The translations under genes were made by a program, and so were the position numbers. The notes under the pieces were generated by a model that did no database searches, was not told the DNA's origin, and was given only the letters and a program-made list of their open reading frames with translations. Of a stretch of DNA of 24,500 bases, positions 3,147 through 7,686 are shown in pieces. Positions within the stretch are counted from its first letter, which is position 1. Each line of letters begins with the position of its first letter. Source of the stretch: Alteromonas naphthalenivorans (GTDB lineage Bacteria > Babelota > Babeliae > Babelales > CAIQNR01); NCBI GenBank assembly GCA_047631715.1, contig JBLICC010000005.1, forward strand, positions 1-24,500, given 5' to 3'.

Positions 3147-4568
3147 ATGAGCACAGTAAAACAAACTACTACCTCACCTAAAAGTGCGGTTACTCTAGGA
3201 AAACAACGTAACTATGCAGAAGTCGTAGATTTTTTAAATAAAAACTGGACTACTGGATGCGATGGAAAAAATGTAGAAAGAGCACGTAAGCTTGATAAAG
3301 CATTTAACTCCCCTTCTCAAAAAATTGAAACTGTTTTGGTTGGTGGAACAAATGGAAAAAGCTTAACCGTTCATTTTGCAACTAAGTTATTACGCACCGA
3401 AGGCTTTACTGTTGGTTCATTTTATGCCCCTCACTTGCTTACCTATAATGAACGTTTCTCTCTTGATGAAGAAACAATCACAAATAAATTATTTACCGAG
3501 CTTGCTAACGAAGTTATTAATACTGCTGAAAGCATCGGTCTAAAAGCAAATACTCAAGAACTTCTTACACAAATTGCTTTTAATTACTTTACTCAAAATA
3601 ACGTTGATGTTGCAGTACTTGAAGTAGAACACGGCGGGGCTTCTCATTCAACGGTTATTAGCTCTCCAAAAATTGTTGCTATTACTCGTCTAACCAGCAC
3701 TGATGTAAATGCTGAAGGACAAGCTTCTCAAGAAGTTATAAAAGAATATTTAGGAGCAGTCGCTAAAGACGCACATCTACTTTCTTCTGATCAAAATAAA
3801 GCAAACTTAAAAAGTATGAGTGAACATGCTGCTCAAGTTGGTGCTGAATGGGCAATGCCTATCAGAAAACTTGTTGCGCTTACGTATCCATTTGAACAAC
3901 TTCATGGACGTTGTGCTGCATTAGCAGAAAGAATTGCTTCTGTATTTGTTAATTCATTTGCTTTCAATCACCCATCACTTGTAAAAGATAGTTTACTTGC
4001 AAGAGTAAAAGGGCAAAGAGGCAGACCTACTTTAGAAGCAAAACGCGAATCACAAATTAATCCAAAAAGAACTATCGAACATTTTTGGAAAGAAACAACA
4101 AGCACACTTTCTGGTCGTTTCCAACTTTTAGAAAAAGAAAAACCAACAGTATTACTTGATAATGCAAATAACATTGATGCATTTAGTAACTTCTTACTAG
4201 GTATCAGATTATTACATTACAATCGCTCTCTTAAAGGACTTACTCTTATTATCGGTTGCCCTCAAGAAACACTTGATTATCAAGAGTTCTTGCGTGCTAT
4301 TAGATATTTCTTTAAGAAAACTTCTGGAAATATATTTATTTGTCCTGTACCAGAACGAGCAGATCAACAAACTACTTCTTGGGATGCCGAAAAAGTTGCT
4401 CAAGATATGAAAGCTCTTAAAATTAAAGCACGTGCTGTACGAAGCTTTAAAGATGCTTTTGATGCTGCAAAGAAAACAGTTAATGATCGTCATGGCCTTA
4501 TTGCTATTGCAGGATCAGAAAACTTTGTTGCAGAATACTGGAACTACAAGGGTATTAAAAAAATATAA
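3147..4568 (+). CDS. Divergent FolC/FPGS-family (Mur-ligase fold) protein, catalytic motifs eroded
   Basis: GGTNGKS P-loop, GSFYAPHLLTYNERF, DVAVLEV, GRFQ and LLDNANN are collinear with FolC, but several catalytic motifs are substituted. Confidence 0.78.
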   Translation: MSTVKQTTTSPKSAVTLGKQRNYAEVVDFLNKNWTTGCDGKNVERARKLDKAFNSPSQKIETVLVGGTNGKSLTVHFATKLLRTEGFTVGSFYAPHLLTYNERFSLDEETITNKLFTELANEVINTAESIGLKANTQELLTQIAFNYFTQNNVDVAVLEVEHGGASHSTVISSPKIVAITRLTSTDVNAEGQASQEVIKEYLGAVAKDAHLLSSDQNKANLKSMSEHAAQVGAEWAMPIRKLVALTYPFEQLHGRCAALAERIASVFVNSFAFNHPSLVKDSLLARVKGQRGRPTLEAKRESQINPKRTIEHFWKETTSTLSGRFQLLEKEKPTVLLDNANNIDAFSNFLLGIRLLHYNRSLKGLTLIIGCPQETLDYQEFLRAIRYFFKKTSGNIFICPVPERADQQTTSWDAEKVAQDMKALKIKARAVRSFKDAFDAAKKTVNDRHGLIAIAGSENFVAEYWNYKGIKKI

Positions 4569-4571
4569 TCC

Positions 4572-4859
4572 ATGACACTTTTACTTATTCTTAAGTCTTT
4601 TGCATTAGGCAGCATTACGGGATGTATATATGGTTTTTTATTAACCAGAAAAATGTCTGCTTTTGCTCATGGACCTACAGATTCTGTTAAAAGTAATTTT
4701 GTATCATTCTTTTTTATAGCGCTTGCACGAATTTTCTTTATTGCATTTCTATGGAATTATATATTGCGTAGAACCTCTCTGAACATTATACTAGTATTGG
4801 TATCTTTTTTAGCGAGTTTTTGGGCAGTCGTCATAAAAAAGAAAGTTCTTAATGAATGA
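4572..4859 (+). CDS. ATP synthase accessory membrane protein (AtpI/AtpR-like)
   Basis: 95 aa with about 3 TM segments and an Arg in the second (ALARIFF); directly upstream of and overlapping atpB. Confidence 0.6.
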   Translation: MTLLLILKSFALGSITGCIYGFLLTRKMSAFAHGPTDSVKSNFVSFFFIALARIFFIAFLWNYILRRTSLNIILVLVSFLASFWAVVIKKKVLNE

Positions 4860-5592
4860 TTTTAATCTCTTAGGTGCGAAAGAGTTTTGGAATCCATTTA
4901 AACGATATGGTTTCACACACTCTTTTTATAACATTACCACCGATACGATAATCGCTACGTGGGTTGTTCTTATTGTAATTCTTTTATTGATCGTCATTGG
5001 GCGATTAGTTTTTAAAAATAAAAAAAGCAGAGTTCGTTACGCACTCATAACAGCAACCGAAGGTTTTATGGATCTCTGTACGCAAACACTGGGAACCTTT
5101 AACTTTCATCATTTTAGCTTTGTCTTCGCTTTATTTATTTTTATTCTTATATGTAACACTATAAGCCTTTTACCTTATCTAGAAGAACCAACTGCAGATT
5201 TAAGTACAACATTGGCTCTTGGAACCCTCTCTTTCTTATATGCAAATTATTATGCAATTAAAGCACAAGGCATCAAAGAATACATAAAAGAATTCTTTCA
5301 ACCGTTCTTTATTATGTTTCCTCTTAATGTAGTAGGAAAACTAGCTTCTATTATTTCTATATCATTCCGTTTGTTTGGAAACATGCTCGGAGGTTCTGTT
5401 ATTGCTAATATTTATACAAGCAGCGTCAGTAGCCATTGGGTAGGTATTCTTGCAAATTTTTGTGGATTCAATTTATTAATGGCATTCTTTTTTACTATTT
5501 TTGCCGGCAGCATTCAAGCATTTGTATTTGCTATGCTCTCGTTAACCTATCTTTCACTCGGTATTCAGGGTGAACACTCAGAAGGCTCCTAA
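4852..5592 (+). CDS. atpB: Fo ATP synthase subunit a
   Basis: PTADLSTTLAL, SISFRLFGN (essential Arg) and IQAFVFAMLSLTY motifs. Confidence 0.95.
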   Translation: MNDFNLLGAKEFWNPFKRYGFTHSFYNITTDTIIATWVVLIVILLLIVIGRLVFKNKKSRVRYALITATEGFMDLCTQTLGTFNFHHFSFVFALFIFILICNTISLLPYLEEPTADLSTTLALGTLSFLYANYYAIKAQGIKEYIKEFFQPFFIMFPLNVVGKLASIISISFRLFGNMLGGSVIANIYTSSVSSHWVGILANFCGFNLLMAFFFTIFAGSIQAFVFAMLSLTYLSLGIQGEHSEGS

Positions 5593-5594
5593 TT

Positions 5595-6554
5595 ATGTTT
5601 GATACATCATTTCTTCATTATGCAACCGTTGGATTAGTTGTTGGATGTAATTCTGTTGCAGTAGGAATAGGAGAAGGTCTAACTAGTTTAGCGGCCCTTA
5701 AAGCATTTATTATTCAACCAAGTGCACGCGAAGAAATAACACGAACACTTATGTTGAGTATGGCACTTATAGAAACATCTGCGGTCATTGGTCTTACTAT
5801 TGGCTTTATGTTTCTTACTCCTCCCGCAGATAATCCACATGTATTTCTTATGCATTACAGTGTTACCGGAATTGGATTAGCAATTTGTTTAACAGGTTTT
5901 GTTCTTGGGATTGCTGCATCTTTTCCTGCACAGGCTGCCTGCCTTGCGGTTGCTCGACAACCTTTTTTTAATCAAAAAATTCAAATGCTTATGCTTTTAA
6001 CACAATCGCTTATGCAAACACCTTTATTATTCGCTTTTATTATTTCTTTTTTTATTAAAGAACAAATTCCACACGTCACCTCTTTGGCAGGAAGCATGCG
6101 CTTAATTGCCGCAGGTCTCTGTATTGGGCTCGGCAGCATTGGACCAACTATTGGTCTTGCACATTTTGCACGCCAAGCATGTAAAAGCTTAGGTGTTAAT
6201 CGTTATGCCTATAAAGAAATACTTTCTTTTACACTTATTAGCGAAGCACTTATAGAATCTCCTATTATTTTTTCTCTTGTTATGTCCTTTGCCCTTTTGG
6301 GAACCAATCCATCTGCCATGTCTCTTGCAACAGGAGGTATTCCTTTTATTGCAGCAGCCATTGTTATGGGGCTCGGAACTCTGGGTGTTGGTATTGGTTC
6401 TGGATACACAGCAACCAAATCATGTAAATATCTTGCAATTAATCCTGAAAGTTATTCTCAACTTTCTCGAACAAGTCTCACAGCACAAGTACTTATCGAA
6501 ACCTGTTCAATTTACGCATTTTTAATTGCATTGTTTGTATTGCTACTCCAATAA
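5595..6554 (+). CDS. atpE: Fo ATP synthase subunit c, fourfold tandem fusion (4 hairpins, 8 TM)
   Basis: Four ~81-aa repeats, each with a Gly-rich inner helix, a loop (IQP/RQP/VNR/INP) and a carboxylate-site residue 19 aa later (E60, Q141, E221, E302); follows atpB. Confidence 0.9.
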   Translation: MFDTSFLHYATVGLVVGCNSVAVGIGEGLTSLAALKAFIIQPSAREEITRTLMLSMALIETSAVIGLTIGFMFLTPPADNPHVFLMHYSVTGIGLAICLTGFVLGIAASFPAQAACLAVARQPFFNQKIQMLMLLTQSLMQTPLLFAFIISFFIKEQIPHVTSLAGSMRLIAAGLCIGLGSIGPTIGLAHFARQACKSLGVNRYAYKEILSFTLISEALIESPIIFSLVMSFALLGTNPSAMSLATGGIPFIAAAIVMGLGTLGVGIGSGYTATKSCKYLAINPESYSQLSRTSLTAQVLIETCSIYAFLIALFVLLLQ

Positions 6555-6567
6555 ATAAAGGATAGTC

Positions 6568-7686
6568 ATGGGGAAAAAAAAGGAGATCCATGTTATTTAC
6601 ATCGTCACAAAATTAGAATTAGGAGGTGCACAAAAAGTATGCCTTTCTTTATTCAATGAACTACAAAAACAACATCAATCATGGCTTATCTCCGGAACAG
6701 AAGGTCAATTAGTACAAGAAACACAATCCAAAACAAATGTTATTCTTCTTGATGCTCTTAAAAGAGAAATCGGATTTTCTGAATTAAAAGCTTTTTTAGA
6801 TCTCATAAGAACCATTAAAAAATATAAAACAAAATATAAAAATTTAATTGTTCATACCCATAGTACCAAAGCTGGCTACTTAGGGCGCTGGGCTGCTTGG
6901 TTTGCAGGAGTAAAATATAGAGTACATACCGTTCATGGATTTGGTTTTCATGAACATCAATCATGGCTTAGTTATAGCATGAGCTATGTGCTCGAAGTTA
7001 TTACCAGTTTTATAACCACTCATTATGTATGCGTTTCTACCAAAGATGTTGAAGTTGGCATTGATCTATTGCCCTCATTTGGTTATAAACATTCCATTAT
7101 TAGAGCAGCTGTTAATAATCATCTTTTTGTTCCTGCTACACAAAAAACAACCTCTACAAAATCTTTTGTATTTGGAACAGTGTCATGCTTTAAAGAACAA
7201 AAAAATATCTTCGATCTTTTACATGCGTTCGCATACACCCATATGCATCACCCCCACTCTAAGCTAGAAATTATTGGCGATGGATTCTTGCGTCCTCAAA
7301 TAGAAAAATGGATTGAACAACATAATTTACAGCACGCTATTACTCTACATGGATGGCAAAAAATAGTAGCCCCTCTTATGCGTTCTTGGCATGTATTTCT
7401 TTTATCTTCTTTGTGGGAAGGTCTACCTTGTGCCATTGTAGAAGCACGCTTTTTAAAACTTCCAGTTATTGCCTATAACGTAGGTGGCATTAGTGATATT
7501 ATTAATCATGGCCAAAACGGGTTACTTTATAAACCAAAAGATAAAGAAGCTCTTGGAAAAGGTATGCTCTCTCTTGCTAAAGATAAACAGTTATACCAAA
7601 AGCTTAGTTCTCACCAAGAAGATCTCTCTGAGTTTACTACCGCTGCTATGGTAGAAGAACATATTTCTTTGTATCGATCGCTCTAA
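6568..7686 (+). CDS. Glycosyltransferase family 4 (GT-B)
   Basis: LELGGAQK, HTHSTKAG, HTVHG and SLWEGLPCAIVEA (Ex7E) motifs. Confidence 0.92.
   Translation: MGKKKEIHVIYIVTKLELGGAQKVCLSLFNELQKQHQSWLISGTEGQLVQETQSKTNVILLDALKREIGFSELKAFLDLIRTIKKYKTKYKNLIVHTHSTKAGYLGRWAAWFAGVKYRVHTVHGFGFHEHQSWLSYSMSYVLEVITSFITTHYVCVSTKDVEVGIDLLPSFGYKHSIIRAAVNNHLFVPATQKTTSTKSFVFGTVSCFKEQKNIFDLLHAFAYTHMHHPHSKLEIIGDGFLRPQIEKWIEQHNLQHAITLHGWQKIVAPLMRSWHVFLLSSLWEGLPCAIVEARFLKLPVIAYNVGGISDIINHGQNGLLYKPKDKEALGKGMLSLAKDKQLYQKLSSHQEDLSEFTTAAMVEEHISLYRSL

Follow-up and report, generated by a model that had tools for sequence, protein, structure and literature searches.

The window analysed here, a stretch of 24,500 nucleotides (nt) from contig JBLICC010000005.1, belongs to a genome of the phylum Dependentiae/TM6 (845 kb, 35% GC, 58 contigs, 90% complete), with close homologues whose source names point to Candidatus Babeliales. 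At positions 5595-6554 of the forward strand it contains an open reading frame (ORF) of 319 amino acids (aa) that encodes a subunit c of the F-type ATP synthase made of four fused hairpins, which we label c4. The gene and its repeats are laid out as follows.

5595..6554, forward strand: c4, subunit c of four fused hairpins (open ORF, Pfam ATP-synt_C, AlphaFold2)
5628..5810, forward strand: hairpin 1, carboxylate E60 (codon 5772-5774); Pfam match
5868..6056, forward strand: hairpin 2, Q141 replaces the carboxylate (codon 6015-6017, CAA), loop R121-Q122-P123 at 5955-5963; Pfam match
6105..6293, forward strand: hairpin 3, carboxylate E221 (codon 6255-6257); Pfam match
6348..6536, forward strand: hairpin 4, carboxylate E302 (codon 6498-6500), the closest of the four to single-hairpin c; Pfam match

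A reading of the same DNA made without database searches (hereafter, the sequence-only reading) had proposed that one 319-aa ORF holds four c-like hairpins, and the profile scan agrees, since Pfam ATP-synt_C (PF00137) matches c4 in four stretches (E-value of 1.9e-32, 111.7 bits against a cut-off of 24). Among the NCBIfam models, those for F-type c rank first. When the four repeats are aligned with the single-hairpin c encoded elsewhere in this genome, the ion-site column falls on E60, Q141, E221 and E302; the conserved Glu/Asp in the middle of the second helix is present in hairpins 1, 3 and 4, and the alignment bears out the earlier proposal that hairpin 2, with Q141, is silenced. The codon of Q141 is CAA, while the other three ion-site codons are GAA. 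The spacing given for these residues, 81/80/81 aa, with each of them 19 aa past a loop residue (Q41, Q122, N202 and N283, respectively), is exact, and so are the DNA echoes, GCACTTATAGAA at 5763 and 6246 and GTACTTATCGAA at 6489. Eight helices had also been expected. The AlphaFold2 monomer model, built from a 63-sequence c4 alignment, arranges the helices in four hairpins (predicted local distance difference test, pLDDT, 96.4; predicted template-modelling score, pTM, 0.92), and by our inspection of the model these would amount to eight transmembrane helices. Pairwise identity among the repeats is 19-28%, which speaks for an old fusion and against an assembly artefact. Contigs from three public DNA runs show no indel across c4, and one of them spans 5496-6554 with a sole difference, 5720 A>C. 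The same substitution is seen in contigs of two public DNA runs; by our reading it falls on the last base of codon 42 (Pro) in c4 and would be silent. The run behind the contig that spans 5496-6554 may be the source sample. In profile comparisons, hairpin 4 lies nearest to single-hairpin c (hhalign score 122) and hairpin 2 is the most divergent, and no pattern of the kind r1=r3, r2=r4 emerged. A four-hairpin F-type rotor subunit in the window is thus confirmed.

Two other memberships were considered and rejected. For a V/A-type proteolipid (K/c), the best V-type NCBIfam model reaches 38.1 bits against a cut-off of 211, and the partner genes are F-type. For the N-ATPase (alternate F1Fo), TIGR03322 scores 80.2 against 130.85 and TIGR03306 scores 104.5 against 302.1, and the genome holds a single F1 set.

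The four-hairpin form is not a peculiarity of this genome. Of 40 relatives, 38 carry a full-length c4 without interruption, and one more has a copy cut by a contig end; c4 was not found in the remaining relative, a genome that is 59% complete. In a wider sample of 201 Dependentiae genomes from 20 families and 120 genera, a match is present in 201/201 and at least two matches in 198/201, and in the rows listed among these 198 the two matches are c4 and a single-hairpin c. On rechecking, two of the three genomes without a second match proved to be 86% complete, and the third (95% complete, 7 contigs) has a sub-threshold second match. The ion-site column was counted in 39 Dependentiae c4 sequences:

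Hairpin 1: E 39
Hairpin 2: Q 27, E 8, M 2, G 1, L 1
Hairpin 3: E 34, G 4, Q 1
Hairpin 4: E 24, D 14, Q 1

Seven of these proteins have four carboxylates, 27 have three and five have two; at least one hairpin is silent in 32/39, and none in 7/39. Since those seven genomes keep all four carboxylates, loss of a site cannot have been what drove the fusion. With Q in 27/39 and E in 8/39 at this position of hairpin 2, Q141 is a trait of lineages and not a constant of the family. On a tree of atpB, the gene for subunit a (38 rows, unrooted; one row was left out as a contig end truncates its atpB), a clade of 8 keeps the acid in hairpin 2 with the exception of one row, and a clade of 30 comprises the forms with a silent hairpin 2. 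The minimum number of changes between acid and non-acid on this tree is 2, 3 and 1 for hairpins 2, 3 and 4 and 0 for hairpin 1, gain and loss being indistinguishable without a root.

Apart from E60, the most conserved feature of c4 is the RQP loop of hairpin 2, where the 63-sequence alignment shows Q122 and P123 without exception and R121 with a conservation of at least 90%. At the position of the loop's Q, single-hairpin c has Y, K, N, A or F. The loop of the single-hairpin c of this genome reads K-Y-P-E, compared with R-Q-P in hairpin 2 of c4. In E. coli, the RQP loop contacts γ/ε. The conservation of this loop in c4, together with its difference from single-hairpin c, would suit a protein that serves as a structural block and not as a stoichiometric ion carrier, that is, as an assembly nucleus that fixes the size of the ring and/or as a dock for the foot of γ/ε, with carboxylates that are partly dispensable. 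So would the at least 2, 3 and 1 losses of the carboxylate that the unrooted atpB tree suggests for hairpins 2, 3 and 4, with none in hairpin 1, and the relatives in other phyla (below) that keep one carboxylate or none. However, the three or four carboxylates found in 34/39 Dependentiae c4 argue for ion carriage, and a structural role mostly refines a model in which c4 shares a ring with single-hairpin c, without replacing it. As an explanation in its own right, we consider it improbable.

Two genes of the window lie directly upstream of c4.

4572..4859, forward strand: small membrane protein, 95 aa, AtpI/AtpR-like by position (a lead only); no family match
4852..5592, forward strand: atpB, Fo subunit a; Pfam ATP-synt_A, 1.3e-38

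The 95-aa protein has no Pfam or NCBIfam match. The Atlas feature search places it nearest to clusters with ATP-synt_I or AtpR, although the scores, at most 0.84, stay below the bar of 0.9, and a homologue lies 5' of atpB in 26/40 loci at E <= 1e-3. The product of atpB, the one PF00119 match in the whole 845-kb genome, aligns to Bacillus PS3 subunit a across the RLFGN motif, in which the stator Arg resides. Its stop codon lies 2 nt ahead of the start codon of c4, and atpB is found immediately 5' of c4 on the same strand in 40/40 loci. The gene 3' of c4 is not atpF; it encodes a GT4 glycosyltransferase (6568-7686), and upstream of the ATPase genes lies a FolC/Mur-ligase-like gene (3147-4568). 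By our count, the folC-like flank recurs in 28/40 loci and the GT4 flank in 27/40.

The other ATPase genes are spread over the genome, which brings the total to at least four loci: the AtpI-like gene, a and c4 on the contig of the window (C5); c, b', b, δ and α, in this order, on contig C50; γ on contig C21; and β and ε on contig C29. The single-hairpin c of contig C50 is encoded by an 87-aa ORF (L001:1486-1746, reverse strand; Pfam 4.4e-17). The b' and b genes were placed by position, neither of the two b-like genes having a Pfam match. The inventory thus comprises one each of α, β, γ, δ and ε, two b-like genes and two kinds of c gene, and the genome encodes one complete F1Fo ATPase with two kinds of c gene. 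In the 21 loci compared (this genome and 20 relatives), the single-hairpin c retains its E in 21/21 and always heads a c-b'-δ cluster, with b detected in 15/21. A deoxynucleoside kinase gene lies upstream of the single-hairpin c in 18/21 loci (17/20 relatives and this genome).

Given this inventory, we think it rather probable that c4 is a rotor subunit of the complete F1Fo ATPase, in a mixed ring with the single-hairpin c, and that the enzyme works as an ATP-hydrolysing ion pump. The four-hairpin c4 and copies of the single-hairpin c, whose gene lies elsewhere, would share one rotor ring, in the way that c1 and c2/c3 do in Acetobacterium woodii. Hydrolysis of host ATP, imported via ATP/ADP translocases, would drive ions out and so maintain the energised state of the membrane. 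A turn of the rotor would cost 3 ATP and move one ion per carboxylate-bearing hairpin, and the silent hairpin 2 would make the ion/ATP ratio slightly lower. We favour the mixed ring because there is one stator and one F1, whereas there are two conserved and apparently functional c genes; with E in 21/21 single-hairpin c and in 39/39 first hairpins of c4, both look like working ion carriers. The closest solved protein points in the same direction, since A. woodii c1 (PDB 4BEM chain J) sits in a mixed ring and is the best solved match of c4 both by sequence (4bem_J, 1.2e-14 over residues 157-316) and by fold (template-modelling, TM, score of 0.79 on the target). So does the adjacency of a four-hairpin c and a single-hairpin c in operons of other lineages, described below. 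A complex prediction of c4 with two copies of c scored 0.55 (runs 0.55, 0.73 and 0.55), compared with 0.00 for the best of 3 controls, and the contacts of the runs agreed to at least 95%, with a pLDDT of at least 73 for the partner. The mark used is reached by 116/157 solved complexes and 2/215 mismatched pairs, of which 18/157 and both passing mismatches score at most 0.60, so that the prediction lends weak support to a pairing of c4 with c.

The sequence-only reading had instead envisaged a homo-ring limited to 8, 12 or 16 hairpins, and had named a canonical atpE beforehand as speaking against it; such a gene is what we find on contig C50, and it is conserved in 21/21 loci. A ring of 2, 3 or 4 c4 chains would have 6, 9 or 12 sites in its 8, 12 or 16 hairpins, and the single-hairpin c would then form an alternative ring of its own that uses this stator too, perhaps at a different life-cycle stage. 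The pairing of c4 with the sole atpB in 40/40 loci, in which the two genes are probably translationally coupled, would fit such an arrangement, as would the very confident monomer model of c4 (pLDDT 96.4) and the fact that engineered fused c multimers work (PMC8809890). Nevertheless, the single-hairpin c keeps its Glu in 21/21 loci and heads the stalk/F1 cluster, the genome has one stator and one F1, and c4 and c are adjacent in 6/6 related operons of other phyla, where one such c4 is without any carboxylate. In addition, the only natural case that has been solved is a mixed ring (PMC9171764). A homomeric c4 ring is, in our estimate, no likelier than a purely structural c4.

The ligand positions around the ion sites bear on the coupling ion as well as on the neighbour relations in the ring. 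In the Na+ site of Ilyobacter tartaricus, Gln32 and Glu65 belong to one hairpin, whereas Ser66, the Val63 carbonyl and a supporting Tyr70 are contributed by its neighbour, with a polar residue at 67 (PMC2359735). Counted from the Glu, the set that we accordingly looked for comprises Gln/Glu at -33, Ser/Thr at +1, a polar side chain at +2 and Tyr at +5 (PMC2359735). The single-hairpin c of this genome reads Q, E, T, S, Y at these offsets, which is the complete signature, and the ligand set is complete in the single-hairpin c of 13/21 relatives. In c4 of the window, the full set is found on no single hairpin. Hairpin 1 has T or S at +1 in 39/39 sequences, and 33 positions before its Glu, 25 of the 39 have Q and 6 have E. 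At +5, Tyr occurs in c4 only in hairpin 4 (39/39), while hairpins 2 and 3 have Phe (39/39 for hairpin 3). Hairpin 1, with E27 and E60, could be completed by T/S and Y from a preceding hairpin, and the arrangement in Enterococcus hirae suggests that the neighbour that gives the ligands is indeed the preceding one (PMC2359735). Read in this way, the site of hairpin 1 would be completed either by hairpin 4 of another c4 or by a single-hairpin c, both of which have T/S and Y. This fits both ring models equally: given the role described for Tyr (PMC2359735), the invariant Tyr of hairpin 4 would support the Glu of the next hairpin 1 just as well in a ring of c4 alone. As to the ion, these residues make Na+ coupling possible.

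Among the known systems, the likeness to A. woodii c1 is the closest, in that a multi-hairpin F-type c exists beside a single-hairpin c and a Q replaces the carboxylate in one hairpin. However, c1 has two hairpins and one carboxylate, whereas c4 has four hairpins and 2 to 4 carboxylates. In A. woodii, c1 and the genes for single-hairpin c share an operon, while in the genome studied here the cluster is split into a-c4 and c-b'-b-δ-α on separate contigs. The Na+ F/V-hybrid ring of A. woodii is described as containing nine single-hairpin c and one c1 (PMC9171764). Co-assembly has been shown for A. woodii c1 and c; for the Dependentiae c4 and c we infer it, as we do the running direction and the coupling ion. 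The V/A proteolipids (Enterococcus hirae NtpK, eukaryotic c/c'') are similar to c4 in that duplication of the hairpin and loss of some ion sites lower the ion/ATP ratio, and c4 matches the fold of 2bl2_A over two hairpins (TM 0.82 on the target); in contrast to them, c4 scores best on F-type models and all its partner subunits are F-type. Archaeal c subunits with 2, 3 or 13 hairpins have been reported (PMC9171764). Finally, the engineered single-chain c10 of Bacillus PS3 demonstrates that covalently linked hairpins are compatible with rotation and ion pumping (PMC8809890), but it is artificial, with designed Gly-Ser-Ala-Gly linkers, whereas Q141 of c4 is natural and conserved in a large clade.

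Multi-hairpin relatives of c4 also occur outside the phylum. An exhaustive search of representative sequences with c4 gave 452 matches; among the best 150, lengths of 300-335 aa prevail (125 proteins), with 20 proteins below this range and 5 above it. Two of these 5 (406 and 411 aa) contain five hairpins, with E,Q,Q,Q,Q at the ion sites. A word search from a five-hairpin protein gave 2051 proteins, of which the best 120 span 304-490 aa and carry source names such as Desulfobacterales, Thermodesulfobacteriota, Olavius-associated deltaproteobacterium and the cultured Desulfatibacillum aliphaticivorans. Besides c4 of the window (P0001, EQEE), the 122 tabulated proteins (P0001, P0186, P0214 and P0269-P0387) show the following ion-site patterns.

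EQQQ: 71
EQQQQ: 30
EQQQQQ: 14
EQQQQE: 3
EQQE: 2
QQEQQQ: 1

The first carboxylate alone is kept in 115 of the 122 (121 without P0001). On metagenome contigs (L072-L078, GC 40-62%), a single-hairpin c with its Glu lies directly 3' of a four-hairpin c in 6/6 cases; one contig has the order atpZ-atpI-atpB-c4-c-b, and another the order atpB-c2-c-b-δ-α-γ. The c4 on L078 lacks carboxylates altogether (G,Q,Q,Q) and could therefore carry no ion alone. Overall, these Thermodesulfobacteriota-type proteins are like the Dependentiae c4 in having at least four F-type hairpins, an inner Q-T-P motif and a Tyr at +5 in the last hairpin, and in that a single c is always encoded too; they differ in having mostly one carboxylate and a single c gene directly downstream. 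Profiles of the two types show a weak positional match, with r1 nearest to t1 and r2 nearest to t2. The metagenome operons resemble that of A. woodii except for their longer block, and severing one of them between c4 and c would give an arrangement like that of Dependentiae. Fusions on a still larger scale were seen in three single polypeptides, P0221 (1139 aa), P0235 (968 aa, unusually rich in Trp) and P0267 (524 aa), which have 15, 13 and 7 c hairpins, respectively, with Glu in every one, and correspond to ring-size or half-ring fusions.

A multi-hairpin c beside a single-hairpin c is thus already known; what is new is a four-hairpin form fixed in a whole phylum. We found no published account of a four-hairpin c in Dependentiae, nor of the four- to six-hairpin c of the Thermodesulfobacteriota type, in a literature search that covered few subscription journals.

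The direction in which the enzyme runs has to be judged from the organism's metabolism and not from c4 itself, since silent hairpins permit synthesis: Litty and Müller report that they do not prevent ATP synthesis (PMC9171764). Contig C2 carries four tandem genes of the TLC ATP/ADP translocase family (about 16.6-22.4 kb, reverse strand), and the genome also has a gene for a membrane pyrophosphatase. No match to COX1, NADHdh, cytochrome bd or Rnf/Nqr was found in this genome, which at 90% completeness does not prove their absence. The ε subunit (contig C29, L007:878-1120, reverse strand) is 80 aa long and consists of the N-terminal β-sandwich domain alone. The ε C-terminal domain (PF00401) had no match in 41 Dependentiae genomes, but this profile was detected in only 4/14 control genomes, so that the short ε is read from the 80-aa length of the ORF instead. 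As the C-terminal domain of ε inhibits ATP hydrolysis, an ε without it fits a hydrolysing enzyme. Yeoh et al. described seven TM6 genomes without an electron transport chain and suggested that ATP hydrolysis maintains the gradient (PMC4776705), and Deeg et al. propose hydrolysis too; the c subunit is not mentioned in the available text of either study. Most likely, then, the enzyme runs in reverse as an ATP-driven ion pump.

Alternatively, the enzyme could be a normal ATP synthase that is driven by a gradient from other pumps, such as the membrane pyrophosphatase, or from a host compartment, and c4 would tune its ratio for synthesis. The pyrophosphatase gene is there to make this conceivable, silent hairpins do not keep A. 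woodii, or an enzyme whose c is V-type, from making ATP when the driving force is low (PMC9171764), and protons derived from the host have been suggested, speculatively, for organisms of this kind in a groundwater study (PMC9938205). Against this stand the four translocase genes, the failure to find respiratory or Rnf/Nqr genes in the 90% complete genome, the ε without a C-terminal domain, and the preference for hydrolysis of both Yeoh et al. (PMC4776705) and Deeg et al. Of the alternatives considered, it seems to us the least probable.

Several points weigh against a pump with a mixed ring. The score of the predicted complex may only reflect that a like complex, 4BEM, has been solved, and c4 and the single-hairpin c are not in one operon here but on separate contigs, so that co-expression is not implied; among RNA runs, none was listed with the stretch. 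A ring of c4 alone, unlikely as we hold it to be, is compatible with the evidence. In a mixed ring, moreover, the lost site would be a small effect, concerning one of 4+n hairpins. A single E56Q in the fused c10 of Bacillus PS3 abolished ATP synthesis, and E56D lowered activity (PMC8809890), which means that a hairpin with Q or D is not automatically harmless. Lastly, enzymes with a V-type c can still synthesise ATP (PMC9171764), and fewer sites are therefore no proof of a pump. Taken together, the interpretation put forward in the sequence-only reading is partly supported: a lower ion/ATP ratio for the pump of an energy parasite suits the translocases and the lack of respiratory matches, but in a mixed ring the ratio would shift only a little.

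The ion/ATP ratio of an F-type enzyme is set by the count of ion-carrying hairpins in its ring. To our knowledge, this gear has been thought to vary in bacteria almost exclusively through how many identical single hairpins make up the ring, A. woodii being the one exception. It is tempting to speculate, although we hold this broader idea to be a good deal less probable than the mixed ring itself, that bacterial F-type ATPases make general use of a device not yet described, namely fused and partly or wholly silenced blocks of c hairpins, each block accompanied by a single-hairpin c, as in all Dependentiae sampled and in Thermodesulfobacteriota. One block per ring would set the size of the ring, remove a defined number of ion sites and so shift the ion/ATP gear, and, by its invariant RQP loop, offer the central stalk a fixed seat on a rotor that is symmetric otherwise. 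Some Dependentiae grow in protist hosts, and one such isolate has been described (PMC6561590); the operon of A. woodii has been expressed in E. coli from which atp was deleted (PMC9171764). The question is thus open to experiment, in protist-grown Dependentiae as well as in at least one cultured bacterium with a relative of c4. If true, the presence of c4 across a phylum of energy parasites would mean that the fusion and silencing of hairpins serves to tune this gear in bacteria, too, and not in V-ATPases alone. The single-site relatives with four to six hairpins in sulfate reducers, which are free-living and not parasites, would show the same tuning of the gear.

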